From Armatimonadota bacterium (lineage in GTDB: Bacteria; Armatimonadota; UBA10988), in assembly GCA_016235455.1 (NCBI GenBank), contig JACRKZ010000095.1, positions 1 through 33,401 of the forward strand: DNA of 33,401 nt. The letters run 5' to 3'. Under the pieces are notes generated by a model. The model searched no databases and was not told the origin of the DNA. It was given only the letters and a program-made list of their open reading frames with translations. The position numbers and the translations under genes are program-made. Below are positions 9,862 to 27,556 of this stretch, piece by piece (position 1 is the stretch's first letter; each line of letters starts with the position of its first letter).

Positions 9862-10977
9862 CTAGAACGGCGGCACCTCAATTTGCCGTAAAGGGTCCGG
9901 GCGGGACCCTCCCTTCTCGGCGCCACCCAGGACGCCACCGGTGCCGCTGCCTTCAACTGAACTATCAGACGCTCGCCCGCTGCCCGCCGCCAACCCCGAG
10001 TTGCCCGGTTCTACCGGCGTACGTCGCGGCGGAGGCGGCGACGTCGCGGTCGAAGAGCCGAGCACGCGGCTGGCCGGGGCGCCTAGACTGGCACCTGAAT
10101 CCTTGACGTTCGTGCCACTGCCGGTGTTCCGCGGCGTCGTATTGCGGCGCGGCGGCGGCGGCGTGGTGGAGCGGTGCGCGTCGACCGGCGCGGAAGGCTG
10201 GCGCAACGTGGTGTTGGCCGAGCGCGACGCGTCGGGCGCCGTGCCGGTCACCGGCTGACCGGGCCGCACCGGCGAGTTGGCCAGCGGCTGACCACCGGGC
10301 ATCGGCTGGCCCAGGCCATTGGCCGCGGGAGCGGGCGGTGTGACCACCGGGCTCGGGTTGGTGGTGGTGGTGCCGGCGCTCAACGGCGCGGTGGCGCGCG
10401 AGGCGCGTCCCCAGTGGAAGGCCAGGGCAAACACCGCGGCCGTGGCCAGCAGCGTGGTGGCAATGCGGCGCACGCCCACCGACGTCAGCCGAGGCCGACG
10501 CGCGGCCCGCTGCGCGCCGGATTCGCCGCCGCGGTCCTTGGCTACTCTTATACGGTCGGACAGGTTGTTCGGCGGTTCCTCGTCGACCACGCTGGACAGC
10601 GCGGAGAACATGGCGGCGTGCAGCCGCGCCTTCTCGGCAAAGTCGGCGTCGACGAGCAGATAGTGGTCGACCACCTGGCGTTGGGGCAGACTCAGATCGT
10701 CCTCGAAGTAGGCGTCAAGCCACTCCAGCGCGGTTTGGCGGTCCACTTCCACCGGTGAAGACTCGGCCACGGCTCGCAGGATGCGCGAGCGCAGGTCGGT
10801 GGGCGGATCCGCTTGCGGGATGCCACGCACCATCTTCACCGCCGCGGCCACGGGCTCAAAGTCCCGCAGGTCCTCGGGGTGGATATCGAGCCACGCCTTG
10901 AGCGTCAACTCGTCCTGTTCCGCCAGCTCACCGTCGATGGCTGCTGACAGGTTCTCGAGCCGTTCGGTCCGGTTCAT
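9862..10977 (-). CDS. Anti-sigma-factor-like membrane protein with two tandem zf-HC2/RsiW-like domains, one TM helix and a Pro/Thr/Ser/Gly-rich tail
   Basis: The repeats LSAAIDGEL...PPTDLRSRIL and LDAYFEDDL...PPNNLSDRI resemble the anti-sigma LsayldgeL...pp..L..ri pattern. TM helix IATTLLATAAVFALAFHW. GTG 10989 is an alternative start. Confidence 0.7.
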   Translation of the reverse strand: MNRTERLENLSAAIDGELAEQDELTLKAWLDIHPEDLRDFEPVAAAVKMVRGIPQADPPTDLRSRILRAVAESSPVEVDRQTALEWLDAYFEDDLSLPQRQVVDHYLLVDADFAEKARLHAAMFSALSSVVDEEPPNNLSDRIRVAKDRGGESGAQRAARRPRLTSVGVRRIATTLLATAAVFALAFHWGRASRATAPLSAGTTTTNPSPVVTPPAPAANGLGQPMPGGQPLANSPVRPGQPVTGTAPDASRSANTTLRQPSAPVDAHRSTTPPPPRRNTTPRNTGSGTNVKDSGASLGAPASRVLGSSTATSPPPPRRTPVEPGNSGLAAGSGRASDSSVEGSGTGGVLGGAEKGGSRPDPLRQIEVPPF

Positions 10978-11065
10978 CGCTCTACTCACTCACGCCGAGC
11001 CACGCCTGACCCTTACGATAGGGCCGTCGGCGTCCGCATCGCGGCGGACGCAACCCGCGGTGGAG

Positions 11066-11378: not shown

Positions 11379-11407
11379 ATGCTAGCATGGCCGCGCAGAC
11401 TCGTCAA
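11379..11407 (-). promoter_or_regulatory. Sigma70-type promoter for tRNA-His (TTGACG-N17-TAGCAT, with extended TG)
   Basis: The minus strand reads TTGACG agtctgcgcggccatgc TAGCAT, ending 12 nt before the tRNA 5' end. Confidence 0.75.
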
Positions 11408-11488
11408 GCTCGCCTGGTCCGCGCCCAACCGCTGGAAGGAGATCGCTGGCGCTCCACGAAGCGCTCCGGGTTGTCAACGGAGACCACC

Positions 11489-12397
11489 ATGCCAGGTACC
11501 GTTGCCTGCCCCAGTTGGCGCACACCGGCCTCGCCCGCGGCAGCGCTGGCACTGGCTGCGAGCGCCTTGGTCGTCGGCGTCGCGTTTGGCCTGGCCTACC
11601 ACCTCATCGCTCGCGTGGTGGACCTGGTGCTGCTCTCCGCGCTGTTCGCGGGTATCGTCGTGGGCATGCCCGTGGAGGCGGCCGCCCGGCGCCTGCGCAT
11701 GGCCAACTACGTCGTTGTCGGCCTGTGTGGCCTGCTGGCCGGAGCCAGTTGCAGCAGCACCAAGATCCTCCTCGATGGCGACCGCCTGCTGCGCCAGGTG
11801 CGCGCCCACCCCGACCCCGCGTGGTCGGCCACGACGCGTGCCGCGTTCGACTCCGCCATGCGTCGGCCCGCCACGCGCCTGCGGATGGCGATACCGGTGC
11901 AAGCCGAGACAGGCCTGGAAGTAACCCGGTTGGGCGTGTCGACAGCTCAACTTCAGGGCGTCGGCGCCTACGTGCTGCTGGCGCTCGAACTGCTCCTCTG
12001 CGCCGCGGTCGGCGGCATGGCGACGCGCGACCACTTCCGCCGCCATTGGTGCCCCGCCTGCGGCGAGCACTGCCACGCCGAGGTGCTGCTGGAGTTGGCT
12101 CAGGCCAGCGTGCCCGACCTACGGTCCGCCGTCGAGTCCGCCGACTGGCGAGCGCTGGCGCCCATCGCCTGGATGGGCGAGCAGCTGCAGCAAACCGAGC
12201 GCCGCGTCAACCTCGAACACTGCGGCCAGCCAGCCCACGACGGCTACCTGAGCCTGCGCGACCGGCCGGGTCGCTACCTGCAGTCGTGGCTGCTCTCGCC
12301 CGGAGACCTGGCCCGGCTCAGAGCCGAAATCGACTCGTGGCACGACGACTGGCCTGCGGCGGAATCGGCCGGAGCCGAGCCAGACGGCCATGTCTGA
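11489..12397 (+). CDS. Hypothetical membrane protein (about 4 TM helices) with a C-terminal CxxC-containing domain
   Basis: ATG 11489 with GGAG RBS. Hydrophobic N-terminal helices are followed by WCPACGEH and LEHCGQPAH. Confidence 0.65.
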   Translation: MPGTVACPSWRTPASPAAALALAASALVVGVAFGLAYHLIARVVDLVLLSALFAGIVVGMPVEAAARRLRMANYVVVGLCGLLAGASCSSTKILLDGDRLLRQVRAHPDPAWSATTRAAFDSAMRRPATRLRMAIPVQAETGLEVTRLGVSTAQLQGVGAYVLLALELLLCAAVGGMATRDHFRRHWCPACGEHCHAEVLLELAQASVPDLRSAVESADWRALAPIAWMGEQLQQTERRVNLEHCGQPAHDGYLSLRDRPGRYLQSWLLSPGDLARLRAEIDSWHDDWPAAESAGAEPDGHV

Positions 12398-13215: not shown

Positions 13216-14190
13216 CTAGGTGCCCCGTCGCGCCGCGGACAGGTAAGCCTGGCGCAACCAGTGCGTGTTCACTCGGCCATCGGCAGCGCTCGTGCGCGGC
13301 GGCGGTCCGCCGCGCAGCGCTTGTTGGAAGTCCAGCAACTCGAGGCGGTAGACATCGTCCTCGGCCAGCACTACTTCCTCGACGCCCGCGGGTGTGCTTC
13401 GCCACAGCCCGCCATCCACCTGCCGGGCTGTACCGTGCGTACCATACACCTCCACGGCCGTGTGGTTGCCCGCCGTGGCAAAGCTCATCTCCAGCACGCC
13501 CAGCGCGCCGGACTCGAACCGCAGAGCCAGCAGCGCGGAGTCCTCGACCGGCACCGCCCAGGCCCGGCTTGCCACCTGCGCCTCGACCGACGCCAACGGC
13601 CCGACCAGCCAAACGGCGAGATCGAGCAGGTGGCTGCCCAGGTCCATGACCACGCCGCCGCCGGCCTGGGCCGGGTCGGCCCGCCAGAGTACGGCGTCCA
13701 GCGGGTACCACTTGGCCATCTGCGCGCGCAGGTAGGTGCAGTCGCCCAGATCGCCGGCCAGCAGCCAGTCGCGCAAGCGGACCATGGCGGCGCTGTGGCG
13801 CATGGGGAAGCAGACGCTGAGCAGCACGCCGGCCCGTTCGGCCGCCTGCTCCATGGCCTCGCAGTCGGCCACGGTCAGCGCCATGGGCTTCTCGAGCAGG
13901 ATGTGCCGACCGGCCGCGGCCGCCGCCTCGACCAGCGCGCGGTGGCTCGCGGGCGGCGTGGCGATGTAGACGGCCTCCAGGCGCGGATCGGCCAGCATCG
14001 CATGGACATCGTCATAGGCGGCATCGGCGCCAAACTCGGCGGCGATGGCCTCGGCGCGGGCCATCTCGCGCACCATGACCGCGCCGACGCGTACCTGGGG
14101 GAGGCCGGCTACCGCGGGCAACATACGCCGGCGGGCCACGCCGCCGGCGCCGACGAAGCCCCACACCACACGCGCGTCAGCGGCCGACAC
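13216..14190 (-). CDS. Gfo/Idh/MocA family oxidoreductase
   Basis: Motifs WGFVGAGGVA, AVYIATPPASH, HILLEKPMA and GGGVVMDLGSHLLD. The probable GTG start at 14190 overlaps the end of the Lon-N gene. Confidence 0.92.
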   Translation of the reverse strand: MSAADARVVWGFVGAGGVARRRMLPAVAGLPQVRVGAVMVREMARAEAIAAEFGADAAYDDVHAMLADPRLEAVYIATPPASHRALVEAAAAAGRHILLEKPMALTVADCEAMEQAAERAGVLLSVCFPMRHSAAMVRLRDWLLAGDLGDCTYLRAQMAKWYPLDAVLWRADPAQAGGGVVMDLGSHLLDLAVWLVGPLASVEAQVASRAWAVPVEDSALLALRFESGALGVLEMSFATAGNHTAVEVYGTHGTARQVDGGLWRSTPAGVEEVVLAEDDVYRLELLDFQQALRGGPPPRTSAADGRVNTHWLRQAYLSAARRGT

Positions 14191-14887
14191 TGCGCAGGAT
14201 CTCCTCGCTGAGATGCTCGTCGTAGTCGAGCCGGCCATTGCCGGTGCAGATGCGCGTAGCTTCCTTGTCGATGGCGATGCGCCGGCCGAGTAGCGCGGTG
14301 CTGGCGCGCAGCCCTTCGGCCACGCGGCGCAGGCGTTCGGCGGTATCGGTCAGTTCCAACAGCGCCTGGCGCTCGCCCGCATCGGCCTGCAGGCTGCTGG
14401 CCAGCGCGAAGCTGAGTTGGCGCGGGTCGCCGGGGAAGACGGGATCGGGCACCGGCTGGCCCAGCGCATCGCGAACCAGGCGGAAGTGCTCGCCGGCCAG
14501 GCGGGTCACCTCCTCGCGCAGGTTCTGGTCGACATCCTGGGTGTCTGGCTCGTCGTCGAAGAACTCCACATCGGCGCGCAGCAGCCCATGGTCGTCGACA
14601 TACGACAGCACCCGGAAGCGATGCTCGCCGAAGGCGAGCAGCATGTAGCGGCCCTCCTCCATCTCGCGGTGCTCACGGATGCGCGCCACGGTGCCGACCA
14701 GATGCGGCACGGCCGGGCCGCCCACCTCCTGGCCCGAGCGCAGCAGCGTCACGCCGAAGCGGCGGTCGCCGGCCAGACAGTCCTCAACCATGCTGATGTA
14801 GCGCGGCTCGAAGATGTGCAGCGGCAGCATCATATGGGGGAACAGCACGATGCTTTGCAGTGGAAAGAGCGGTAGCGCAACACCCAT
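14177..14887 (-). CDS. Stand-alone LON peptidase substrate-binding (N-terminal) domain protein
   Basis: LPLFPL...VLFP...LPLHIFEPRYISMVEDCL...VGTVARI...G..RFRV...RQALLEL. No AAA or protease domain. GGAGG RBS. Confidence 0.92.
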   Translation of the reverse strand: MGVALPLFPLQSIVLFPHMMLPLHIFEPRYISMVEDCLAGDRRFGVTLLRSGQEVGGPAVPHLVGTVARIREHREMEEGRYMLLAFGEHRFRVLSYVDDHGLLRADVEFFDDEPDTQDVDQNLREEVTRLAGEHFRLVRDALGQPVPDPVFPGDPRQLSFALASSLQADAGERQALLELTDTAERLRRVAEGLRASTALLGRRIAIDKEATRICTGNGRLDYDEHLSEEILRSVGR

Positions 14888-15130: not shown

Positions 15131-16423
15131 TCACCCGCGAGTCGCTGGCGGCTGGGCCAAGCGCGGCTGAGGCCGGCCCTGGCAGGCGCCGACCACACTC
15201 TCGCGATAGCGCTGATATTCCCAGTGTGGACTGTTCTCGGTCGTGTGGCAAGACTCGCAGCCAGCCTTGTCGCGCGCGGTGGGTTTGCTCGTCCGCGGCG
15301 CCTTGAGGTGCGCTTCGAGCTTGTCGTGGCAGGTGGCGCACTGCACGCCGCGGTCGCCCGATGCCGGTGGCCGTACCCCAGCGCGCCGGAAAGTCTCGTC
15401 GTGGCAGCCCATGCAGCCGGCAACGTCGCGAGCGCGCTGCTCGAGCGTGGTCACGGCCTGCGCGTGGGCATGCGTCCGCCAGGCGTTGACCGCGCGGCCG
15501 TGGCAGCTCACACAGGCCGCCGGCCGCGGGAAGGTCACCTGGGCCGCTGTGGGCGAGGCGGTCGACTCGCCATCGCGCACGCGCCGGTAGTACTCGTCGA
15601 TCCAGGCTTCCATCACCGGGTCGTGCGGGCCTTCTTCGACCAGCGCGGCGCGCGCCGTGCGTGAGCCGTCGGCGGTGAAGTCGATGGTGCTCAGCGACCG
15701 GGCGCGCCGCGCCTGGTACACCCACAGCACGCCGTCGCGCTCCGCCGGCGACTCGGCAAAATCGGAGTCGGTGGCCAGCGCCAGCACCGTCGGCCGCCGA
15801 TCGGCGGGCACCTTGGCCAGCAGCGAGGCGGTGAGTTCACTGCCCAGATGGGAGACCAGCACCACCACCTGGCAGCCATCGGCGCGCAGGCGGGTCACGC
15901 CACCGCCCACGGCGTCGGCCAGGTCGGCCTCGGCCAGCCGGCCGGCGAAGGCGGCCATGATGCCCACCTTCCAGCCGCCACTCTCCACCGTGCGCGCCGC
16001 GGGCACCTCCGGCTGGCCGGCTGCCGGCGGGCCGACGGGCGGCGTGAGGCAGGTACTGGCCAGCAGGTGCGCGCCGAGCACCGGCCCGAGCTTGCTCCAG
16101 TCTTCACAGTCCTGGGCGGAGAGGGCCACGACGTCGACACTAAGTCGCGCCAGGCAGCGCGCGATGACCGGCAGGCGGTCCGTGCGCTGGCCAATGTCGC
16201 CGGCCTCGATGATCACCTTGGCGCCCGGTGTCTCAGCCCGCCATTGGGTCAGCATGGCCGCGCGGCGGGCCAGTCCTCCGGCGTTGCGGCCGCCGCAGCC
16301 GCAGGCCTCCAGGTAGTCCTGACAAAGCCCGCCAATGGCAATCGACAGGTCGCCACGGCCAGGCTGTCCGCCAGCCAACAGCGGCACTGTCGCCAACACC
16401 AGGAGCCACGCACATCGCCTCAT
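15131..16423 (-). CDS. Secreted UshA-like (5'-nucleotidase fold) N-terminal domain fused to a tetraheme cytochrome c (c554-like) domain
   Basis: Signal peptide, then YLEACGC..AGGLARRA..IIEAGD and VVVLVSHLG. The C-terminus has four CxxCH motifs (CVSCH, CMGCH, CATCH, CESCH) plus W..H.HA.A. The start overlaps the upstream stop (ATGA). Confidence 0.85.
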   Translation of the reverse strand: MRRCAWLLVLATVPLLAGGQPGRGDLSIAIGGLCQDYLEACGCGGRNAGGLARRAAMLTQWRAETPGAKVIIEAGDIGQRTDRLPVIARCLARLSVDVVALSAQDCEDWSKLGPVLGAHLLASTCLTPPVGPPAAGQPEVPAARTVESGGWKVGIMAAFAGRLAEADLADAVGGGVTRLRADGCQVVVLVSHLGSELTASLLAKVPADRRPTVLALATDSDFAESPAERDGVLWVYQARRARSLSTIDFTADGSRTARAALVEEGPHDPVMEAWIDEYYRRVRDGESTASPTAAQVTFPRPAACVSCHGRAVNAWRTHAHAQAVTTLEQRARDVAGCMGCHDETFRRAGVRPPASGDRGVQCATCHDKLEAHLKAPRTSKPTARDKAGCESCHTTENSPHWEYQRYRESVVGACQGRPQPRLAQPPATRG

Positions 16424-19400
16424 CGTTCGCTCACCTCGTGGACGCTCTCGTCGCCATCGGCCAGCGACAGGCCGTGGATCCGCAGTGGGTCGCTACCGTT
16501 GCGCCGCGTGCGCAGGCGCAGCGCATCCACCTGCGACCAGTCCAGCCGCGCGCCGTGGACCACCGCCGACAGTCGCCTCAGCTCGACCGCGAGCCGCTGC
16601 CGGCCCGGTCCGCTGGGCGTCACCGTGGCGGCGAACCAGCGCCGTTCGCCTTCAGCCACCGCGCCGATCTCGATGGTTACGGCGCCGCCCTGGCGGCCCG
16701 CGTCCAGGTCGACCACGAGCGCCCGGGCCTGTCCGCCGAGCCGGCGCAGCGCCTGCACGTGGTTGGTGATGAGTCCCAGCGAACGCGCCGCGGCCGTGGC
16801 CGGCAGCGCCAACTCGACCGCGCCATCGCCGGCGAGGCCCAGCGCCACGCCGCGCGCATCAGTCTCGGGAGTGAGCCGGAAGACCGGCTGGCCTTGGGCG
16901 GCGAGCGCGAGTTCGGGGCTCTGCCAGCCCTCACTGCGGGGCAATACGTGGAGATCGGCCAACCGGTAGCTGGTCACGGTGGACCACCGCGCGTGGCCCT
17001 CGGCATCGACCGCCTGAGCCGCCACCGCGACGCTCTGAGCCGGCGCGGCGAGTTTCACCTCGGTGCTCGTGGACCGCGGCTCCACCAGGCTCCACCAGCG
17101 GCCCGGCCAGTTGTCGCTGGACCACGGGCCGACGCTGATCCAGAGCCGCACGGCGCTCACCTGGCCCACGCTGCTGACACCCAGGCTCAAGCGTTCGCCG
17201 GACCCGCGCGCGACCACCTGCAGCGGGGCACGCGTGGCCAGACCGTCGGCCAGCCAGTCGGCCAGCAACGACCCCAACGTCGGCGCGGCCAGGGCCGACT
17301 CGGCGTTGGGTAGCAGGCGGAAGGCTTTGCGGCCGCCGAGTCGCTCATGCAGCCGCAGCACACTGGGCAAGCGCCAGTCGGGCTGGTTGGACGATGCCAC
17401 CTGCAGCACCGGCACGGTCACCCGGGGTGCCCAGCGCTCGGGCGACCAAGCCGTCCGCCAGGCGTCCCGGTACATCGGTGAGCAGCGCTCCAGCGCCTCG
17501 GCCACGCTGCTGTCGACGGGGCGATCGGTGGCGCCGACGTCGGCCAGCAGCAGCGCACTCAGACCGGTCGTCTGAGCCGCCAGAGCGATGACCGGTGGGC
17601 CGGCTGCGCCGGCGGCCACCACCACCGTGCCGGATTCGGCGGCCGGCTCGCGCCCGAGGACCTGGACGCAGCGCCAGACGGCCAGCCCCTGATGCCAGGC
17701 CAGCCCGGTCTTGGGCGAGCGTCCGGCATCCACCAGGCGCGTCGACGGCCAGGCACCCAGATCGCTGTTCCAGTCGCCATCGAGCGCGGGATGCAGGTCG
17801 GGCTGAAGGCAAGTGTAGCCGGCGCGCGCCAGGCGCAGCATGTCGGCCGGCGGCAGGGCCTGTGCCATGTCGCCCAGCCATAGTACGCGGCGCTTGGCCT
17901 GGCCCACGGCCCGCGCCAACAACGCCCGAACCACGATCGGCCGCTCGCTGATGGTCTCCGCGACCAACTGGACGCGGCTCAGCCGTACGCCGTCGACCAG
18001 CGGTCCGTCGCTGACGGACGCCGCGGGCTGCTCCGCCAACTGGGTCGGCGCCCATGCTCGGTACAGCGCTGGCCCAGCCTGCTTCTGGCCACGGCTGACG
18101 GCGATCTCCTCGCGCTCGTGCGGCGCGACGTGAATGCGCCAGCCGGCGCGGGCGGCAAGGGCGACGGTCAACAGGCCGACGAACCAGGCGATGCGCCGCC
18201 GGTCCTCGGGCTGAATGCGCAGCTTGCCCCGGTTGGCCAGGATGAGGAAGGCCGCCATGAACGGCAGCGCCGGCAGGCCGGGCAGACCGCTGCCCAGTTG
18301 GCTCAGCACATGGCCGAGCGTGAAGCCCACGGTCAGCGCGGCGGCCTGGGCCCAGAAGTTGCGCACCAAGCCCAGGTCGAAACGCTGAGCGGCGGCCAGG
18401 AAGAGGGCCAGAAAAACGAAGTCGCCCCACCCGATGGCGCCGTGGATAAGGTCGCTGCCCAGCACCGGCCACGGCAGCAGGCTCACGTCGCGCAGCGCGG
18501 CGGCGAGGCTGGAGCCGCTGGTCATCACCTCGCCCGTGTGGCCGAAGAAGACCAGGTAGATATCCAACACCGCGCCGACCAGCGCGGCCATGACCACGTA
18601 ACTGGTCTGCCGGCAACCCAGCGACAGCAACCAGCCGGCGCCGGTGGTCCAGGCCAGCATGCCCACGCCCACGCCGAGCCACAGCAGTCGCGCCGACGAG
18701 GCCGGCACACAGGCCAGGTCGGGCACGCCCGGTCCGAAGCGGCAGAGCACGGTCAGGCCGACGCCGGCGACCAGCGTGCCCACGGCCACGGTCCAGCGCG
18801 GCCGACGGCTGACCCCGACCAGTACCAGCGCCGAGCCGAGCAGCGCGCCCATGATGGCCGAGACCGGCGCGGCGGCGGACAGCAGGAACGGCTGCAACTC
18901 AGGCGCCAGCCCCGCCACCAGCAGCCAGGACAGGCACCACACGCCGGTGGCGGCGACCATCGGCCAAAGCTCGTCGAGCGCCGCGCGGCGGCCGCGCCGG
19001 GGCCGCGCGCCCCACGGCAACGGCGGCGCGTGTTCGCGCACTCGACCATAGAGCAGGATGCCACTGCCCAACGCCACGCCCAGCAACGCCGCCAGCACCG
19101 ACCACAGCAACGTGCCGGCCAACTGGCGGCGTGGAGTCTCAACCACCACCTCGTCGCGCCGGCCGTTCGGCCGCACGGTGACATAGCGCTCCACCACCGG
19201 GCCGTCGGCGAAGGTCACGGTCAGCTGATAGGCGCCGGGGCTGAGCCCTTCGAAGCGAAAGAGCCCGACGGCATCGGCCCGCGTGGTCAGCGGCGCACCA
19301 GGGCCGAGCAGTTCCACCTCGGCCTGCTCGCTGGGCAGATCGGTCACCAACCGGCCCTGGTAGGCGCAGGTCTCCTGCGCGCCCGCCGCGACGGCGAGCC

Positions 19401-19434
19401 ACAGAAGCAGCAGCAGCGTGCGGGCGGCGTTCAT
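16420..19434 (-). CDS. Multidomain membrane protein: carboxypeptidase-regulatory-like (Cna-B-type) domain + presenilin/SPP-like GxGD aspartyl protease domain + degenerate alpha/beta-hydrolase + C-terminal CBM-like domain
   Basis: ATG 19434 overlaps the cyclase stop (ATGA). Signal peptide; DAVGLFRFEGLSPGAYQLTV; multi-TM region with LDIYLVF, IGWGDFVF and LPALPF; hydrolase-like segments GYTCLQPD and RVTVPVLQVASSNQPDW; terminal LDWSQVDALRL...LRIHGLSL. Confidence 0.75.
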   Translation of the reverse strand: MNAARTLLLLLWLAVAAGAQETCAYQGRLVTDLPSEQAEVELLGPGAPLTTRADAVGLFRFEGLSPGAYQLTVTFADGPVVERYVTVRPNGRRDEVVVETPRRQLAGTLLWSVLAALLGVALGSGILLYGRVREHAPPLPWGARPRRGRRAALDELWPMVAATGVWCLSWLLVAGLAPELQPFLLSAAAPVSAIMGALLGSALVLVGVSRRPRWTVAVGTLVAGVGLTVLCRFGPGVPDLACVPASSARLLWLGVGVGMLAWTTGAGWLLSLGCRQTSYVVMAALVGAVLDIYLVFFGHTGEVMTSGSSLAAALRDVSLLPWPVLGSDLIHGAIGWGDFVFLALFLAAAQRFDLGLVRNFWAQAAALTVGFTLGHVLSQLGSGLPGLPALPFMAAFLILANRGKLRIQPEDRRRIAWFVGLLTVALAARAGWRIHVAPHEREEIAVSRGQKQAGPALYRAWAPTQLAEQPAASVSDGPLVDGVRLSRVQLVAETISERPIVVRALLARAVGQAKRRVLWLGDMAQALPPADMLRLARAGYTCLQPDLHPALDGDWNSDLGAWPSTRLVDAGRSPKTGLAWHQGLAVWRCVQVLGREPAAESGTVVVAAGAAGPPVIALAAQTTGLSALLLADVGATDRPVDSSVAEALERCSPMYRDAWRTAWSPERWAPRVTVPVLQVASSNQPDWRLPSVLRLHERLGGRKAFRLLPNAESALAAPTLGSLLADWLADGLATRAPLQVVARGSGERLSLGVSSVGQVSAVRLWISVGPWSSDNWPGRWWSLVEPRSTSTEVKLAAPAQSVAVAAQAVDAEGHARWSTVTSYRLADLHVLPRSEGWQSPELALAAQGQPVFRLTPETDARGVALGLAGDGAVELALPATAAARSLGLITNHVQALRRLGGQARALVVDLDAGRQGGAVTIEIGAVAEGERRWFAATVTPSGPGRQRLAVELRRLSAVVHGARLDWSQVDALRLRTRRNGSDPLRIHGLSLADGDESVHEVSER

Positions 19435-22400
19435 GCCAGTACCGCCTGGGCCGGCGCCAGATAGAGCCGGCGCACCCGCGCCGACCAGCCGGGCCCGGCC
19501 TGCTCGCCCAACCGCGCCACCAGCGCCTCGGCCCGGTCCAGGTCGGCGGAGCACCGTCGGGCCGCGGCCCGCGCGCCCAGAGCCGCCACTTGCTCCTCGG
19601 CCAGCCCGCAGGCCTCGGCCAGGCGCACCGCTTCATCCAGATCACCCGGCCACACGCGCAGCCGGCGGCCGCGGGCCGCCAGCGGCTCCAGGCCCATGCG
19701 CTCGGCCAGGCTGAGCGCCGCTTCCAGCACGTCGTCCGCCGGCCAGCCCTGGGCCAGTCGCGCCGCCGCCAGGTCGAGCAAGGCTAGCGCGTGCTCTGCC
19801 TCGCGGTGCCCGCTGGCCAGCGTCTTCACGACGCCCTCGGCCAGCGTCTCGGCCTCGTCGGCCCGCCCCAGCGCCAATGCCAGCCGCGATGCGGCCAGGT
19901 CGATCTCCTCGGCCGCCGCCAGTTCGCCCACGCGTTCGCGCACGGCACGTGCTTCGGCCAGCCTGGCCTCGGCCGCGGCGTGGTCGTCGCTGACCCGCGC
20001 CAGCTCGGCCATGGCCGCCAGCGCACCGGCTTCCCAGCGGGAATGACCCGTTTCGCGCGCCAGTTCGAGCGCTTCGTCGAGTTGCTCGCGCGCCTCGGCC
20101 AGCCGGCCGGCGCCAGTCAGTGTGCAGCCCAGCCAGTAGCGTACCTCGGCCTCGATGGTGCGCTCGCCAGTGGCCTGCGCATTGGCCAGCGTGGTGCGAT
20201 AGGAGGCCAGTGCGTCGTCCAAATGGCCCAGATTGCGGTGCGCCGAGCCCAGGTTGCCCGAGGTGTAGCACTGCAACTGCACGCGCATCGGATCGCCCTC
20301 ATCCAGCCCGTCCAGCAGCTCGGCGCAGGTATCGCAGGCGGCCAGCATGTCGGCGAACCGGCCCATGGCGTCGTAGACCGCCGCCAGGTTGTTGTAGGCC
20401 ACCCACTGTCCGAACCGGTCGAACTCCATCTTGCCCAGTTGCACATCGAGAGCTGCCTGGAAGTGCTCCAGCGCGCTCTCGAAATGGCCCTGCAGATACC
20501 ACAGGTTGCCGATGCCAAAGTGCGTGTCGCGCACGCCCGACCAGTCGCCGAGCGCCTCATACTCGGCCAGTGACTGGTCGAAATAGCCGTGGGCGGCATC
20601 GAACTCACCCAACTCGGTGTGCCGCCGCGCGAGCATGTACGAAGCGTCGATGACCGCCAGAGGGTCATCGAGCCGACGTGCCAGTTCCAGGCGCTGAGCG
20701 CAGTAGTCGATCAGCTCGGCATCGCCCGTGCGCGACTGCACCAGGGTGATGCCGCGCAGCACGGCCAGCTTGTCGGCCAGCGCGCTCTCGCCCACCTCAT
20801 CAGTCTTCTCCAGCGCGCGCTTGAAGTGCAGCAGCGCCTGCTGGTTGCTGAACACGCGCGCCGCGCGGTCGGCGCTGCGCGGCAGATAGAGCAGCGCCCG
20901 GCCGGCGGCCGCGGAGTTGTAGTAGTGGTAGCTGAGGTCGTCGAGGTAGGCGTCGAGGCTGGCCGCGTAGTGGTTCTCGATGTACTGGCCCATGCGCTCA
21001 TGCAAGCGGCGGCGCTCGGTGCGCAGCAGCGCGTTGTAAGCCACGTCGCGGGTCAGCGCATGCTCGAAGACGTACTCCTCGTCCTGGTCGTGCCGGCTCT
21101 CCAGGTGCACCAACTCGCGATGGCCCAGCAGGTCCAGCAGGTCGCCCAGGTCGCGCCGTTCCAGCACGAACTCCAGCGCGCTGCGCCGGAAGTAGCGGCC
21201 GATGATGGCCACGCTGGCCGCCTGGAGCAGCGCGCGCGGCTCGCTCGGCAACTTGTCGATGCGCGACAGGAGGATCTCTTCCACGCTGTCGGGCACCAGG
21301 TTGCCCAGTTCATCCTCGGTGATCAGCAGGCGGCCGCGCCGGTAGTCGATGGTCGGCCGACCGCTGAGTTCGGCGCGCTCGACCAGCGCGGTGACCACCT
21401 GGTCGATGAAGAAGGGGTTGCCTTGCGACTTGTGGTAGACCGCCTCGGCCAACGACGGCTCGATGCGCCGCTCGTCTTCGATGAGCCCGCGCGCGGCCAT
21501 CAGCGAGCCGACCACCTCGCGCGTCTCGTCCTCGGTCAGCCGCCACAGGTCGAGCCCCTGGTAGTCCGTAGTCCAGTGCGCCTCGTAGTCGGGCCGGAAG
21601 GCCGTCACCAACAGCAACGGCGCGGCCGGCGCGGCGTCATGGAGGTCGTCGAGCAGCTCCGCGGAGTCGCCGTCCAGCCACTGCAGGTCGTCGACGAACA
21701 CCAGCATGGGTCGCGCGGCGGCCGCCCCGGTGAGCAACGCGGTGAACGCCGCACGCAGCCAGCCGCGGCGCTGCTGCGGCTCCGAGGCCGACCAGGTCTC
21801 GTCGTCGGGCTCCAGACCCAACAGGAAGGCCAGGGCCGGCACCGCCTGCTCGGCCTGTGGGCACGCGTCGGCCACGCCCGCGGCGATCTTGACCAGCCGG
21901 ACGTCACTCGAATCCAGGTCGTCGATGGCCAGCAGTTGGGACAACACCTCGCGCACGGGCAGGTAACTCAGGTTGGCGCCGTAGCTCAGACAGCGACCCT
22001 CGAGGAACCGCGTGGTCGCGCCGTCCAGCCCGCGGGCCAGCTCGAAGACCAGCCGTGACTTGCCCAGCCCGGCCTCGCCACGGACGCCCAGCGTGCCGCC
22101 CTGACCGGACGACGCGCGGTCCCAGGCGTCCTGGATGGCGAGCAGCAGGTCGTCGCGCCCGACCATCCGGCTCATGCCCGCGCTCTGGGCGATCTCGATG
22201 CGGGCCGCGCGCCTCTTCTCGGCCACGACCGACCAGATAGGCACCGGCTGGCTCTTGCCCTTCACCTTGACCGGCGGCAAGGCCTCGAGCTCGAAGCTGC
22301 CCTGGCAGCGCCGGTGGGTGTGGCTGGAGATGAGGCTCTGGCCCCAGGCGCAGGCGGTCATCAGGCGCGCGGCCAGGTTGACCGTGTCGCCCATGGCCGT

Positions 22401-23003
22401 GTATTCCATGCGCCCGCCGGCGCCGACGCCGCCCACGCGCACCGGCCCGGTGTTCAGCCCGATGCGCAGTCGCAGCGGCGCCTGGGCGGGGATGGTGCCG
22501 TCCTCGTGCAGCCGCGCCAGTTCGGCGTGCATCCGCACCGCCGCGCGCAAGGCCCGCTCCGGCGCGTCCTCGTGGGCTACCGGAGCGCCGAACAGCGCCA
22601 TGATGTCGCCATCGAGGAACTTGTCGATATAGCCGTCGAACGAGCGCACGATGTGCTCGCCGGCCAGTCGCTCGAAGACCTGGTTCATGATGTCGGTCTG
22701 GCGTTCGCGACCGAGCCGCTCGGTCATCTCGGCGAAGCCGTCCAGATCGGCCATCATGACGGTGATGGTGCGCAACTCGTCGCGCTTGGCGGTCTCGACC
22801 CCGGCGTTGGGCGCCGTGACCTGGGAGTCGGCCAGCCACAGGCCGCAGCCACCGCAGTACTTGTCGCCCCGCCGGTTGGAGTACCCGCACGCCGGGCACA
22901 ACACTTCCAGCCCGCCCCCACAGCCGGCGTGACCGTCCTCGCCGCCGCAGAAGCGCCGCCGAGCGTCGTTGTCGACTCCGCAGTGGGGACAAACCAAGAT
23001 CAT
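19431..23003 (-). CDS. Class III adenylate/guanylate cyclase with double zinc ribbon, STAND-type AAA ATPase and TPR repeats
   Basis: N-terminal CPHC/CPAC/CGGC zinc ribbons. Cyclase motifs TVMMADLDGF, DKF, LRIGLNTG and YTAMGDTVNLAARL. Walker A GEAGLGKS, Walker B VFVDDLQW, GNPFF, FEHALTRDVAY, then TPR-like helices. ATG 23003. Confidence 0.93.
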   Translation of the reverse strand: MILVCPHCGVDNDARRRFCGGEDGHAGCGGGLEVLCPACGYSNRRGDKYCGGCGLWLADSQVTAPNAGVETAKRDELRTITVMMADLDGFAEMTERLGRERQTDIMNQVFERLAGEHIVRSFDGYIDKFLDGDIMALFGAPVAHEDAPERALRAAVRMHAELARLHEDGTIPAQAPLRLRIGLNTGPVRVGGVGAGGRMEYTAMGDTVNLAARLMTACAWGQSLISSHTHRRCQGSFELEALPPVKVKGKSQPVPIWSVVAEKRRAARIEIAQSAGMSRMVGRDDLLLAIQDAWDRASSGQGGTLGVRGEAGLGKSRLVFELARGLDGATTRFLEGRCLSYGANLSYLPVREVLSQLLAIDDLDSSDVRLVKIAAGVADACPQAEQAVPALAFLLGLEPDDETWSASEPQQRRGWLRAAFTALLTGAAAARPMLVFVDDLQWLDGDSAELLDDLHDAAPAAPLLLVTAFRPDYEAHWTTDYQGLDLWRLTEDETREVVGSLMAARGLIEDERRIEPSLAEAVYHKSQGNPFFIDQVVTALVERAELSGRPTIDYRRGRLLITEDELGNLVPDSVEEILLSRIDKLPSEPRALLQAASVAIIGRYFRRSALEFVLERRDLGDLLDLLGHRELVHLESRHDQDEEYVFEHALTRDVAYNALLRTERRRLHERMGQYIENHYAASLDAYLDDLSYHYYNSAAAGRALLYLPRSADRAARVFSNQQALLHFKRALEKTDEVGESALADKLAVLRGITLVQSRTGDAELIDYCAQRLELARRLDDPLAVIDASYMLARRHTELGEFDAAHGYFDQSLAEYEALGDWSGVRDTHFGIGNLWYLQGHFESALEHFQAALDVQLGKMEFDRFGQWVAYNNLAAVYDAMGRFADMLAACDTCAELLDGLDEGDPMRVQLQCYTSGNLGSAHRNLGHLDDALASYRTTLANAQATGERTIEAEVRYWLGCTLTGAGRLAEAREQLDEALELARETGHSRWEAGALAAMAELARVSDDHAAAEARLAEARAVRERVGELAAAEEIDLAASRLALALGRADEAETLAEGVVKTLASGHREAEHALALLDLAAARLAQGWPADDVLEAALSLAERMGLEPLAARGRRLRVWPGDLDEAVRLAEACGLAEEQVAALGARAAARRCSADLDRAEALVARLGEQAGPGWSARVRRLYLAPAQAVLA

Positions 23004-23050
23004 GAGCAGACCACGCTGGCACCCGCCGCCCCGGCCGGGCGCAGTGCCCC

Positions 23051-23080
23051 AGTATAGGCCCGCCCGCAGGCCATCGTCAA
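23051..23080 (-). promoter_or_regulatory. Sigma70-type promoter for the cyclase operon (TTGACG-N18-TATACT)
   Basis: The minus strand reads TTGACG atggcctgcgggcgggcc TATACT within the 82-bp gap upstream of the cyclase ATG. Confidence 0.7.
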
Positions 23081-23085
23081 ACCGC

Positions 23086-24252
23086 TCATGGCGCGATCTT
23101 GAGGCCGCGGAGCGGCTCGGATACCGCCGGCTCCTGGACCTTGATGCGCCACCCGGGCTGACCGGCAACGGACACGGCCTCGCCGCCATTGGCCAGGATG
23201 ACCCGCTCGGCGAGCCGCAACAGCAGGTCCGCTTGCTCGCTCACCCGGCAGGTGGCTGGCAGCTCCGGTCGGGTCTTGTTCACGAAGAGGTCGGGCATCT
23301 TGCACCGCGGCAGGGCGCTGATACGCTGCCAGCCCCAGCGCGCACCGAGCACGGTGCCGGCCGTCGCCGCATTGCAGTCAGCGTCGTAGCCGAGCGCCAT
23401 GGCATAGCGCAGCGTGGCATCGAAGTCATCTTGGCCGTAGAGCAGCGCCAGGATGACCGCACCGCCGTTGAGCGGCGTGGAGTTGTAGCCCCACTTGCGC
23501 TGGTCATGCCACTTGGCATGAATCGCGGCGCGACCGGCGCGCCAGTCGGCGGGGTGCGCGGCATGGGCGGCGCGGGCGTCCGCGACCACTTCGGCCATGG
23601 CGCTTCTGGGGTCCACGGCGGCCAGCGCGGCGGTGATCGTCGCCTGCAGATCCGGCTGCCCGACCATACTCAAGCTGATCAGGGCGGTCCAGTACTGCGT
23701 GGCCTGCAACGGCTCGCCCGATACGGCGATGCGCGCATAGTGCAGGCCCAGGTCGGCCGCCGCCCGCGGCATGCCGGGCGCGATCAGGCCGAATGACTCC
23801 GTGCAGAACTGCCCCGACAGGTTGTACCAGGCGTGCTCGTTGTGCGCTTGACTGCCGGTCTCGGGCGGTACCAGGCCTTGGTCCATCAGTTCGCGCGCCC
23901 GCTTGTTGGCCACCCACAGGCCGCTGTTCATGTTCGCCTTCCAGATGGCGACGATGCGCTCGTAGGGCAGCTTCAGCGTGCCCTCGCGATCCATGAACCA
24001 GAGATGAGTCCACTCGAAATCGTTGTCGTCGTCGGTGCGCGCGCCGCCGGGCAGGTAATCGAACACGGGCAGCGCGGCGGCGGGCTGCTCGTTGTACTTG
24101 AACTCGTGGGCCAGCCCCTCGATGCCCCCGATGAGCTGGCCTGCCCAGCCGCCGTACAGCCGGTCGCGCAGTTCGGCCTGGGTGATCGCCACGTCGGCCG
24201 CGTGCGCCGTCATCGCCAGACTCCCGACCAACGCCAGCAGGGCCGGGCGCAT
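23086..24252 (-). CDS. ADP-ribosylglycohydrolase family protein with signal peptide
   Basis: Motifs DRLYGGWAGQLIG, TDDDND and GYDADCNAATAGTVLG. Signal peptide MRPALLALVGSLAMTAHA|ADV. The start overlaps the ADH stop (GTGATG). Confidence 0.88.
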   Translation of the reverse strand: MRPALLALVGSLAMTAHAADVAITQAELRDRLYGGWAGQLIGGIEGLAHEFKYNEQPAAALPVFDYLPGGARTDDDNDFEWTHLWFMDREGTLKLPYERIVAIWKANMNSGLWVANKRARELMDQGLVPPETGSQAHNEHAWYNLSGQFCTESFGLIAPGMPRAAADLGLHYARIAVSGEPLQATQYWTALISLSMVGQPDLQATITAALAAVDPRSAMAEVVADARAAHAAHPADWRAGRAAIHAKWHDQRKWGYNSTPLNGGAVILALLYGQDDFDATLRYAMALGYDADCNAATAGTVLGARWGWQRISALPRCKMPDLFVNKTRPELPATCRVSEQADLLLRLAERVILANGGEAVSVAGQPGWRIKVQEPAVSEPLRGLKIAP

Positions 24253-25250: not shown

Positions 25251-25750
25251 GTGGGTCGTTCCTCTCGCCTCAACAGGCTGGCGCGGTTCTCCACGCGGTC
25301 GACGAACAGAACGCCGTCGAGATGGTCGATCTCATGCTGCAGGAGCACCGCCTCGAAGCCGTCGGCCTCGAAGCGCAGCGGCGCGCCAGCCAGGTCGAAC
25401 GCCTCGACCACGATGCGCTTGGCCCGCCGCGTCTGGCCGGTGAACTCGGGCAGGCTCAGGCAGCCTTCGCGGAAGGTGCGCGAGCCCACGCGCTCGACAA
25501 TGACCGGGTTGAGCAGCACGCTCGGCGGCAGCGGGCTGTCGGCGTACTTGGCGTGCCGCCGCGGATCGACGAAGATCATGCGCCACAACTCGCCGATCTG
25601 CGGCGCGGCAATGCCGGTGCCGACCACGGTGTCGAGCGTGTCGCGCAGGTCGTCCGCGAGCCGGCGCGCCGCGCTCGTGCCCGGCGTCACCGGGGCACAG
25701 ACCGCCTTCAGGCGGCTGTCGGGATAGACCACGATGTCTCGGACAGCCAT
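25247..25750 (-). CDS. def: Peptide deformylase
   Basis: All three PDF motifs are present: GIAAPQIG, EGCLS and QHEIDHLDG. Confidence 0.96.
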   Translation of the reverse strand: MAVRDIVVYPDSRLKAVCAPVTPGTSAARRLADDLRDTLDTVVGTGIAAPQIGELWRMIFVDPRRHAKYADSPLPPSVLLNPVIVERVGSRTFREGCLSLPEFTGQTRRAKRIVVEAFDLAGAPLRFEADGFEAVLLQHEIDHLDGVLFVDRVENRASLLRREERPT

Positions 25751-25753
25751 GGC

Positions 25754-26284
25754 TCAGAGCGTCTCGCTATCATCGTGCCGCAGGGTGATGTCCACCTTGA
25801 GCTGGTCGCGCAGGCGAGCCAGTTGCACCTCGATTTCGTCGTCCGTCGTGTCGAGCGGGACGATCATTTCGAGCAGCATCAGGTAGACCGGGCCGGCGGT
25901 ATGGGTGGTGACATCCACAATGTTGCAGTCGAGCTGGGACAGTTCCTCGGCCACGTGGTAGACGATGCCGGGCTGGTCGGCGCCGTAGACGGCCAGACTG
26001 CAGGAGCGGCCTTCGGGCGGCGGCACCGGCGCCTGACCACCGAGGTCGCGCAGGTCGACATTCACGGCCAACGCCTTGGCCGCCTCGCCCAGCGAGTCGC
26101 AGAGTCCGTGCAGGTCCGGCTCGTCGGGCAGTTTGGCGATGAGAATCATGGCGAACGCATCACGCAGCCGCATGGCGCTGCTGTCTTCCAGATTGCAGCC
26201 GTGTTCGAAGAGAACCTTGGTGATTCCCGCCACGATCCCCGGCCGATCCTGGCCCAGGACGGTGATCGCTACCCATTTGCTCAT
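25754..26284 (-). CDS. GcvR-like double ACT-domain protein
   Basis: Two ACT starts, ITVLGQDRPGIVAGIT and VYGADQPGIVYHV. GAGGAG RBS before ATG 26284. Confidence 0.88.
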   Translation of the reverse strand: MSKWVAITVLGQDRPGIVAGITKVLFEHGCNLEDSSAMRLRDAFAMILIAKLPDEPDLHGLCDSLGEAAKALAVNVDLRDLGGQAPVPPPEGRSCSLAVYGADQPGIVYHVAEELSQLDCNIVDVTTHTAGPVYLMLLEMIVPLDTTDDEIEVQLARLRDQLKVDITLRHDDSETL

Positions 26285-26446
26285 GGCCACTCCTCACCGG
26301 CCCATTCGGCCCCACGCGCGGGCAACCTCCTCGGGCGCAACCAAAGCGCAACCGCTGGTCTGCAATGTCGCAGCCCTCATGGCGCACAACTGGCAGTAGC
26401 ACCTGCACCGGCGCTCCGGTGCCGGGCGGGTGGAAAGGAGTACCCG

Positions 26447-27556
26447 GTGGACTTCATCGATCGTGACGAGCTGCGGGGGCTGCTCGTCTGGGAAACCTCA
26501 CCTTGCGTCTCGATCTTCCTGCCGACCCATCGCAGTGGTATCGAGGCTCACCAGCAGGACACGATCCGCTTCAAGAATCTGATCCACCAGGCCGAGACCG
26601 CGCTCGGCGCTCACGGCTGCAAACCGCCCGAGGTCCGCGAACTCCTCGCGCCGGCGCGCCGCCTGCTCGACGATAACGACTTCTGGGCCGACCAGAGCGA
26701 CGGGCTCGCCGTCTTCCTCGCGCCCGGCTACGTGCGTACCTACCGCATCCCCATCAGCCTGGAGGAGCTGGTGCGCGTTAACGACCGTTTCCATATCAAG
26801 CCGCTGCTGCCGCTGCTCACGCTCAACACCCGGTTCTACGTGCTGGCGCTGAGCCAGAAGCAGCTACGCTTACTCAAATGCACGCGCCACACCTGGCGCG
26901 AGATCGAGTTGCCCGGCAGCCCGACCAGCCGCGAGGAGGCCTTGGCCTTCGACGATATCGAGAAGGTCATGGCGCCTGGCGGGTTCGACAACGAGCGCCA
27001 ACAGGCGGTCGTGCGCTATCTGCAGTCGGTCAATCGCGGTGTGCACGACCTGCTGCGCGACGAGACGGCACCGTTGGTGCTGGCCGGCGTGGAGCATCTG
27101 GTGGCGGCCTACCGCGAGGTCAATGACTACCCGCACCTGGCCGAACCCGCGATCATCGGCAACCCCGACGAGCGCAACAAGCACGCCAAGGACCTGCATG
27201 CGGCCGCCTGGGAGCTTATCGAGCCCCGGCTCAAGCGCACCCGCGAGGAGGCGTCGGCGCTCTACCAGCAGTACAAGGGCCAGGGCAGCGCGCGGGTCTC
27301 GGCCGACATCGAGCAGATCCTGACCGCGGCCAGCTCCGGCCGCGTCGACACGCTGTTCGTCAGCCGCCGACACCCGATCTGGGGCCACTTCGACGCCGAG
27401 GCCGGCGCGGTGGAACTGCTCGACGCCCAGAACCCCGGCGCCGAGGACCTGCTGGACCTGGCCGCCGGCCAGACGCTGCTCAACAGCGGCCGCGTCTTCG
27501 CCAGCGACGAGGCCCTGCCCGACGAAGGGCTGGTGGCCGCGGTCTACCGCTACTGA
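26447..27556 (+). CDS. Bacterial archaeo-eukaryotic release factor (baeRF family 3/7-like) protein
   Basis: GTG 26447 after AAAGGAG. Motifs PCVSIFLPTHR, DGLAVF, FHIKPLLP, FYVLALS, PLVLAG, GRVDTLF, DLLD..A..TL..G.V and C-terminal AAVYRY. The ORF-track extension to 25322 is antisense to def/ACT and spurious. Confidence 0.82.
   Translation: MDFIDRDELRGLLVWETSPCVSIFLPTHRSGIEAHQQDTIRFKNLIHQAETALGAHGCKPPEVRELLAPARRLLDDNDFWADQSDGLAVFLAPGYVRTYRIPISLEELVRVNDRFHIKPLLPLLTLNTRFYVLALSQKQLRLLKCTRHTWREIELPGSPTSREEALAFDDIEKVMAPGGFDNERQQAVVRYLQSVNRGVHDLLRDETAPLVLAGVEHLVAAYREVNDYPHLAEPAIIGNPDERNKHAKDLHAAAWELIEPRLKRTREEASALYQQYKGQGSARVSADIEQILTAASSGRVDTLFVSRRHPIWGHFDAEAGAVELLDAQNPGAEDLLDLAAGQTLLNSGRVFASDEALPDEGLVAAVYRY

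Follow-up and report, generated by a model that had tools for sequence, protein, structure and literature searches.

Aspartyl intramembrane proteases of the presenilin and signal peptide peptidase (SPP) type have been described from eukaryotes and archaea. A gene from an Armatimonadota bacterium raises the question of whether a bacterium holds such a protease as well, here within a single multi-domain chain, and of what its soluble domains and neighbouring genes would have to do with it. The window, that is the whole stretch of DNA analysed, comprises positions 1 to 33,401 (33,401 nucleotides) of contig JACRKZ010000095.1 (assembly GCA_016235455.1; lineage Bacteria, Armatimonadota, UBA10988), and the gene lies on its reverse strand at 16420-19434. 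On balance, its product, termed P0001, is probably a distant bacterial homologue of the presenilin/SPP intramembrane aspartyl proteases.

Catalytic-type motifs and their conservation

The initial annotation had read the three signature motifs of A22 proteases, in the correct order, in this gene. Translation of 16420-19434 confirmed all three, with exact coordinates:

18562 to 18564, reverse strand: codon of the first catalytic-type aspartate, D291, in AVLDIYLVFFG (from the translation)
18421 to 18432, reverse strand: GxGD motif, G335-W-G-D338, in IGWGDFVF (from the translation)
18265 to 18273, reverse strand: PAL motif, P388-A-L390, within LPALPF (L387-F392, 18259-18276)

The order in P0001 is D...GxGD...PAL, with spacings of 47 and 50 residues. 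The frame is free of stops and encodes 1004 residues. A database protein of 1004 amino acids (P0002) is 100% identical to it, and the full-length homologues have 941-1013 amino acids. An alternative GTG start at 19554 would give a longer frame that overlaps the upstream gene; the ATG at 19434 was preferred because it fits the N-termini of all homologues and the identical database protein. The GC content of the window is about 70-74%. Long spurious frames overlap the gene, for example 17345-18682 on the reverse strand and 18118-19464 on the forward strand; they are expected at 73-74% GC and could mislead gene callers.

Homologues were collected by an exhaustive HMMER search with residues 100-475 of P0001 against 1.84 billion representatives, which was needed because word-based searches yielded few relatives (3 and 7 proteins). 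It returned 169 proteins at E ≤ 1e-3, 34 at E ≤ 1e-10 and 11 at E ≤ 1e-30. Conservation was counted in an alignment of the query and 149 listed hits (150 rows), from which the identical P0002 and stretches with an independent E of at least 1e-3 had been dropped. D291 was kept in each of the 138 rows with a residue at this position (the other 12 are fragments with a gap there), and D338 in 150 of 150. The first glycine of GxGD, G335, was kept in 149 of 150 rows, P388 in 148 and L390 in 144, and G298 in 136 of 140. The second glycine, G337, was looser (G 104, T 18, A 17, S 8, N 1, other 2, in 150 rows), although P0001 itself has G. A MAFFT alignment of the family (A1) agreed with these counts. 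The conservation of D, GxGD and PAL on which the initial annotation depended therefore holds in the homologues: neither aspartate varies, and PAL hardly does. The family consensus around the first aspartate is ADIWSVFxGP, which we take to resemble the SPP-type motif. D291 and D338 probably constitute the active site.

Predicted fold and domain anatomy

Residues 100-475 were modelled with AlphaFold2 from 150 sequences, with a predicted local distance difference test score (pLDDT) of 89.7 and a predicted template modelling score (pTM) of 0.87. The model shows a membrane core of presenilin/SPP-type fold with a beta-hairpin before GxGD. It has ten membrane helices, with D291 on the sixth, GxGD opening the seventh, PAL before the ninth and the tenth at 409-436; D291 and GxGD are on consecutive predicted helices, and PAL lies just before helix 390-400.

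18235 to 19134, reverse strand: nine-helix membrane core with the catalytic motifs, residues 101-400 (AlphaFold2 model)
18430 to 18480, reverse strand: predicted beta-hairpin directly before GxGD, residues 319-335 (DSSP strands 220-224 and 231-236 of the model)
18127 to 18210, reverse strand: tenth transmembrane helix, about residues 409-436 (model helix 310-337, with a loop rich in Lys and Arg before it)

Structural and profile searches both led to known A22 proteases. The first 13 PDB rows returned by Foldseek for the core model were all presenilin-1 or SPPL2a (probability 0.75-1.00). VIA-align ranks 1-21 were all presenilin-1/2, SPPL2a or the archaeal PSH (Z 13.8-9.0), and the next, unrelated row had Z 8.5. 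The best match was presenilin-1 (8x53_B, Z 13.8, root mean square deviation (rmsd) 3.0 over 184 residues), with SPPL2a at Z 11.8-12.0 and PSH at Z 11.0-9.0. In a Foldseek-independent search of 48,161 chains, the top rank went to SPPL2a (9k93_A, Z 12.0, rmsd 3.8, 190 aligned) and the next to PSH (Z 9.0); below these came three-helix bundles, matched to nothing beyond the first 111 residues of the model. With profile A1, searched against 177,635 PDB sequences, presenilin-2 (7y5x_B) was matched at E 2.8e-6 and presenilin-1 at E 1.2e-5 to 1.1e-4, and SPPL2a at E 1.5. The stretch from GxGD through PAL aligned residue for residue with the presenilin GLGD and PALP, and D291 fell on the presenilin-2 YD aspartate in a weak sub-alignment (domain 1, 6.4 bits). 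The structural similarity to A22 proteases put forward in the initial annotation was thus recovered in the VIA-align ranking, in the 48,161-chain search and with the profile.

Several results weigh against this assignment. At E ≤ 1, no presenilin/SPP model of Pfam matched P0001, which gave a sub-threshold CarboxypepD_reg match alone, and PF06550 and PF04258 had no match at this limit in the whole genome. In relatives, PF04258 scored below its cut-off (20.7 and 19.4 bits against 23.3); of 11 full-length ones it matched two (best E 9e-4), and PF01080 matched one (E 0.035). The gathering cut-offs of PF01080, PF04258 and PF06550 were reached neither by P0001 nor by these relatives. The Foldseek E-values were weak (best 2.5e-3), with template modelling scores (TM-scores) of 0.24-0.32. 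The span aligned by VIA, model residues 85-306 (protein 184-405), starts at the third helix, so that the first two helices (101-180) are outside it, and by the tool's own note helical bundles can reach Z of about 13 without homology. In addition, NCBIfam had no match to P0001, and a phmmer search of PDB with the single P0001 sequence gave nothing significant (best E 0.27). Because the curated Pfam models fail, we filed P0001 as an unmodelled bacterial branch of the superfamily (MEROPS A22, clan AD) and not as a member of A22A or A22B.

A relative of the type IV prepilin peptidases (A24), or chance motifs in a GC-rich hydrophobic frame, would be another source of these motifs, since GxGD is common to A24 peptidases and the GC-rich window has many spurious long frames. 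However, A24 peptidases have GxGD without PAL, which is conserved in the present family, and the Pfam scan of P0001 at E ≤ 1 gave no Peptidase_A24. The A24 model PF01478 found two other genes in the genome (contigs C102 and C8) and not the P0001 gene, and no prepilin peptidase or FlaK was among the matches listed (best 50) in either VIA search. The 169 database homologues at E ≤ 1e-3 likewise speak against chance. With no A24 match and with conserved motifs, both readings were rejected as extremely improbable.

The membrane core is one part of a longer chain. The initial annotation had described a four-domain fusion; the fusion stands, and the count has to be raised, since the models show five structural modules and a signal peptide.

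16420 to 19434, reverse strand: whole gene of P0001, with signal peptide, beta-sandwich, ten-helix presenilin/SPP-like core, pseudo-esterase and two beta domains
19375 to 19434, reverse strand: predicted signal peptide, about residues 1-20 (MNAARTLLLLLWLAVAAGAQ), read from the sequence as a hydrophobic stretch ending A-G-A-Q
19135 to 19371, reverse strand: N-terminal beta-sandwich, CarboxypepD_reg/transthyretin-like, about residues 22-100 (PF13620)
17239 to 18075, reverse strand: alpha/beta-hydrolase of the CE7 acetyl-xylan-esterase type without the nucleophile, residues 454-732 (model and fold searches)
16963 to 17220, reverse strand: first all-beta domain, about residues 739-824 (strands 300-385 of the C-terminal model)
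16459 to 16920, reverse strand: second all-beta domain, about residues 839-992 (strands 400-553 of the C-terminal model)

Ten of the 11 aligned homologues begin with a stretch similar to the signal peptide, the exception being P0013, a fragment truncated at its N-terminus. For the domain that follows, first described as Cna-B-like, the type was refined to a probable CarboxypepD_reg beta-sandwich, which presumably belongs to the same transthyretin-like clan as Cna-B. PF13620 matched P0001 below its cut-off (E 4.3e-6, 27.4 bits against 32.3), exceeded it in 3 homologues (33.0-33.8 bits) and matched 10 of 11 relatives at E ≤ 0.1. For this domain, the profile of alignment A2 matched the Ig-like repeats of NOMO2 (E 3.6e-11).

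The orientation of the core was read from its charged loops. In nine full-length proteins, the mean number of Lys and Arg residues was 4.3, 1.0, 1.9, 0 and 1.8 in loops 1-2, 3-4, 5-6, 7-8 and 9-10, and 0, 0.1, 1.3 and 0 in loops 2-3, 4-5, 6-7 and 8-9. This positive-inside pattern together with the signal peptide predicts that both termini are outside the cell, i.e. the orientation of SPP and the reverse of presenilin. In the SPP orientation, the expected substrates of the core would be type II helices (N-in, C-out), signal peptides or signal anchors for instance. According to an excerpt of PMC12745688, SPP-family enzymes cut mainly type II helices; in SPPL2a, an antiparallel beta-hairpin lies preformed close to the active site, and pairing with a strand of the substrate has been proposed for it.

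For the C-terminal part, an AlphaFold2 model of residues 440-1004 reached a pLDDT of 84.1 and a pTM of 0.84; it was built on an alignment of only 11 rows, a point that weakens the readings drawn from it. The hydrolase-like domain named in the initial annotation was borne out as a CE7 fold and refined to a nucleophile-less one: Foldseek matched it to 7xmj_B (E 1.3e-11), VIA matched it to 6agq_A (Z 25.8, rmsd 2.8, 270 aligned), and a profile search matched it to cephalosporin C deacetylase (E 4.6e-7). The column of the catalytic Ser, in the GGSQGG elbow, holds G in seven, E in two and D and A in one each of the 11 family members, with G609 in P0001 and neither Ser nor Cys in any of the 11. The catalytic His is present in 4 of the 11, and S713 stands at its position in P0001. 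Since the nucleophile is absent in 11 of 11, the domain is, judged by its sequence, a pseudo-enzyme that has kept the CE7 fold and is not an active member. A likeness to cocaine esterase appeared as long Foldseek alignments with poor TM-scores (0.27-0.31), and no claim was made of it.

The part called CBM-like in the initial annotation consists, in the model, of the two all-beta domains, for which that label is a tentative one. The second beta domain carries the conserved motifs TN..ALRRLG and W..VD (A2 columns). In the fold searches with the 565-residue C-terminal model, the match lists were filled by the hydrolase domain and held no match for the beta domains. A search for a stand-alone version of the C-terminal module (310-989 aa) found none; as a word-limited search, it is weak evidence.

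Gene neighbourhood, paralogues and rival roles

The gene lies between two neighbours on the same strand:

19431 to 23189, reverse strand: upstream gene, with double zinc ribbon, class III nucleotidyl cyclase, AAA_16 STAND ATPase and TPR (Pfam)
15131 to 16423, reverse strand: downstream gene, secreted, with UshA-like domain, invariant E-x-CGCGG and four CxxCH haem motifs (Pfam cytochrome families, alignment A5)

Both junctions in the window are ATGA overlaps, one between the stop of the cyclase gene and the start of the protease gene, the other between the stop of the protease gene and the start of the downstream gene. The downstream protein matched NF041198 at E 6.3e-20, far below the cut-off. 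NCBIfam 'UshA-like (seleno)protein' models match this protein well below their cut-offs, and the protein has Cys where the model name suggests Sec in other members.

Related loci were found in Armatimonadota, with three of the four fused-form loci in Fimbriimonadaceae. A shorter form of 446 aa, with beta-sandwich and core, occurs in a same-order genome (locus L022). By tblastn, the cyclase-STAND-TPR gene is the direct upstream neighbour in all five related loci, L022 among them, as it is in the window. The tetrahaem gene follows downstream in the window and in each of the four fused loci, and is absent there in the short-form L022; the C-terminal module and the tetrahaem gene thus co-occur. 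The window neighbours LonN, ADP-ribosylglycohydrolase, ADH, baeRF and SAM_HAT were not found in the related loci by tblastn, and the GFO oxidoreductase neighbour recurs only in L022. All loci with the conserved order come from one family and one same-order genome, which weakens the case for a functional unit: these loci share ancestry, and their counts are inflated and not independent.

Elsewhere in the window, 25322-27556 on the forward strand encodes 744 aa with a C-terminal bacterial archaeo-eukaryotic release-factor-like domain (baeRF family 3, E 3.7e-38). The gene at 14177-14887 on the reverse strand encodes a 236-aa stand-alone LON substrate-binding (N-terminal) domain without the ATPase or protease part. 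Frames of 824, 375 and 336 aa at 7369-9843 (reverse strand), 9862-10989 (reverse strand) and 11387-12397 (forward strand) had no Pfam match at E ≤ 0.001.

The membrane domain itself is widespread. A 40-row profile of it matched 194 of 201 sampled Armatimonadota genomes at E ≤ 1e-5, and 164 of the 170 high-quality ones; nearly all of these matches were open frames of about 260-400 residues. One sampled family, f17, was the only one with the domain in none of its genomes (0 of 5; G021, G034, G047, G059 and G071; 96-97% complete, 2.2-2.7 Mb). Of the five other genomes in the window's family, four have a full-length match to P0001, and the one without a match is 80% complete. A protein search of the window's own genome with P0001 found only P0001 itself, and the 40-row profile was needed to detect a paralogue. 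With it, a separate stand-alone paralogue was found in addition to the fused gene in 4 of the 5 genomes searched (G000, G002, G004 and G005), with none seen in the 72%-complete G003. The own-genome copy (G000, locus L034) lies at 13046-13888 of contig C126, forward strand, and had a profile E of 5.4e-37. The stand-alone paralogues carry the variant motifs VVDLWGV, IGPGD and PGL, the last in place of PAL. As a separate stand-alone copy exists in the same genomes, the fused gene is an extra, specialised paralogue.

This distribution bears on a rival reading, in which P0001 would be a general housekeeping peptidase for signal-peptide remnants and the cyclase and cytochrome neighbours mere inherited synteny. 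A stand-alone family that is near-universal in the phylum would agree with a housekeeping role of the family at large, signal peptides are compatible with the SPP orientation (Lys and Arg pattern; excerpt of PMC12745688), and all synteny loci are close kin. For P0001, however, housekeeping is probably already covered by the separate copy in 4 of the 5 fused-gene genomes searched. Moreover, apart from the closest relative P0003 (67%), the fused proteins share no more than 30-38% identity with P0001, yet they keep the same two neighbours while others differ. In the window both junctions are ATGA overlaps, and the cyclase link extends to the L022 short form, which comes from another family. We regard the housekeeping reading as unlikely.

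A FastTree phylogeny of 105 sequences of at least 200 residues (257 columns; shorter fragments dropped; midpoint root only) put the 11 fused forms, and nothing else, in one clade (support 0.865), with P0012 as its sister (0.997). This clade is nested in a clade of 18 (0.962) with short forms of beta-sandwich and transmembrane core, and the stand-alone paralogues of G000, G001, G002, G004 and G005 form a separate clade of 5 (support 1.0). The topology suggests that the architecture grew stepwise, from the stand-alone protein to beta-sandwich plus core and then to the full fusion.

A distant family member, the metagenomic protein P0081 of 1076 aa, has in one chain an N-terminal membrane domain with D/GxSD/PAI, a long middle part, a HAMP domain and a guanylate/adenylate cyclase. 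By its predicted domain order, P0081 is a second, independent link of the membrane domain with cyclases.

Another rival reading keeps the presenilin/SPP fold and gives up the protease work: the core would be a scaffold or anchor that holds the periplasmic domains, perhaps with the tetrahaem protein, and relays a conformational signal to the cyclase-STAND protein. Loss of catalysis has already occurred in the same chain, where the esterase fold is clearly a pseudo-enzyme, and P0081 joins a D/GxSD/PAI variant to HAMP and cyclase in a receptor-like manner. Furthermore, 2 of the 11 fused relatives have GxAD instead of GxGD, which counts against a protease role for the fused proteins as well. On the other side, the 150 sequences, all fused forms among them, show little or no variation at the two aspartates, at G335 and at P388 and L390, a pattern expected under selection for catalysis, and the model keeps the hairpin before GxGD. 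A non-proteolytic core is accordingly given a low probability. The role of an intact protease, and that of ligand sensors for the flanking domains, both named in the initial annotation, are inferred ones.

Proposed role and comparison with known systems

Taking P0001 as a protease, its SPP-oriented core would cut type II membrane helices, with D291 and D338 forming the active site and the hairpin pairing with a substrate strand as proposed for SPPL2a. The extracytoplasmic sandwich, the dead esterase and the beta domains would sit over the mouth of the active site, where they could select or admit the substrate or bind a partner. Such an ectodomain would be comparable in function to the PA domain of SPPL2 or to nicastrin while being homologous to neither. 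As the C-terminal module occurs only where the tetrahaem gene follows, the periplasmic UshA-like tetrahaem protein would be its likeliest ligand or client; the signal peptide of this downstream protein is only a candidate substrate. In the last and weakest step, cleavage would release or remove a membrane-anchored factor acting on the cytoplasmic cyclase-STAND-TPR protein, so that a periplasmic signal would end in cyclic-nucleotide output. Taken together, these steps would make the locus a self-contained machine for regulated intramembrane proteolysis, in which the ectodomain docks the tetrahaem protein and its redox or ligand state leads to cutting of a type II anchor and switching of the cyclase-STAND-TPR protein. 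We offer this full scheme as a speculative one that is doubtful as a whole.

Literature searches for a link between Armatimonadota and presenilin found none, the matches listed treating the two topics only separately, and broader searches gave nothing on bacterial members. The public names of the fused homologues ('carboxypeptidase regulatory-like domain-containing protein', 'hypothetical protein' and 'dienelactone hydrolase') make no mention of a protease. What is new here is the fused architecture with its dead esterase and tenth helix, along with the conservation of the three genes as a unit. How presenilin/SPP proteases choose their substrates is an open question in the field, and extramembrane parts (nicastrin, the PA domain) have been implicated in the substrate choice of gamma-secretase and SPPL2. 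An enzyme of this kind from a bacterium, with a pseudo-hydrolase ectodomain in its single chain, a defined partner gene and a gene for cyclic-nucleotide output, would be a simple system for the study of substrate gating and would give the first physiological context for a bacterial member. If the proteolytic scheme is true, it would be a previously undescribed bacterial route from a periplasmic signal to cAMP/cGMP via intramembrane aspartyl proteolysis.

Among the known systems, SPP and SPPL2a (MEROPS A22B; PDB 9K92/9K93) share with P0001 the order D...GxGD...PAL, the fold (Z 12.0, 190 aligned), the predicted hairpin and the N-out topology. The SPPL2 proteases also have an extracytoplasmic N-terminal domain, a PA domain in their case (excerpt of PMC12043953) and a CarboxypepD_reg-like sandwich in P0001. 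In contrast to SPP/SPPL2a, P0001 is bacterial and adds a tenth helix, which returns the chain to the outside, and the large C-terminal pseudo-esterase and beta domains; it also differs from SPP in being undetected by PF04258 and in having its first two helices outside the structural alignment.

Presenilin-1/2 (MEROPS A22A), the catalytic subunit of gamma-secretase, gave the best profile match (E 2.8e-6) and the best VIA score (Z 13.8) to the P0001 family, whereas the predicted orientation of P0001 is opposite and the long cytoplasmic TM6-TM7 loop of presenilin is lacking. In gamma-secretase, nicastrin places a large extracellular domain with an inactive hydrolase fold beside the protease. The ectodomain of P0001 is in the same chain as the protease, and its CE7 alpha/beta-hydrolase fold is unrelated to nicastrin, so that the likeness is by analogy only.

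The archaeal PSH/MCMJR1 (PDB 4HYG, 4HYC, 4Y6K; PF06550) resembles P0001 in being prokaryotic, in having the motifs in one chain and in its fold (Z 11.0-9.0). According to an excerpt of PMC2947513, MCMJR1 is an active GxGD protease without cofactors. Unlike P0001, PSH is a bare nine-helix protein without soluble domains, and PF06550 finds nothing in the genome of the window. The stand-alone presenilin/SPP-like proteins of Armatimonadota belong to the same membrane domain family as P0001, are missed by Pfam and NCBIfam and lack soluble domains, whereas P0001 is placed in a separate paralogue clade, with modules added at both ends and with conserved neighbours particular to it. Finally, the CE7 acetyl xylan esterases and cephalosporin C deacetylases (PDB 6AGQ, 1ODS, 1L7A) have a fold in common with residues 454-732; in contrast to these enzymes, the domain of P0001 has no Ser nucleophile, has Ser in place of the His, is fused to a membrane protease and is predicted to be periplasmic.

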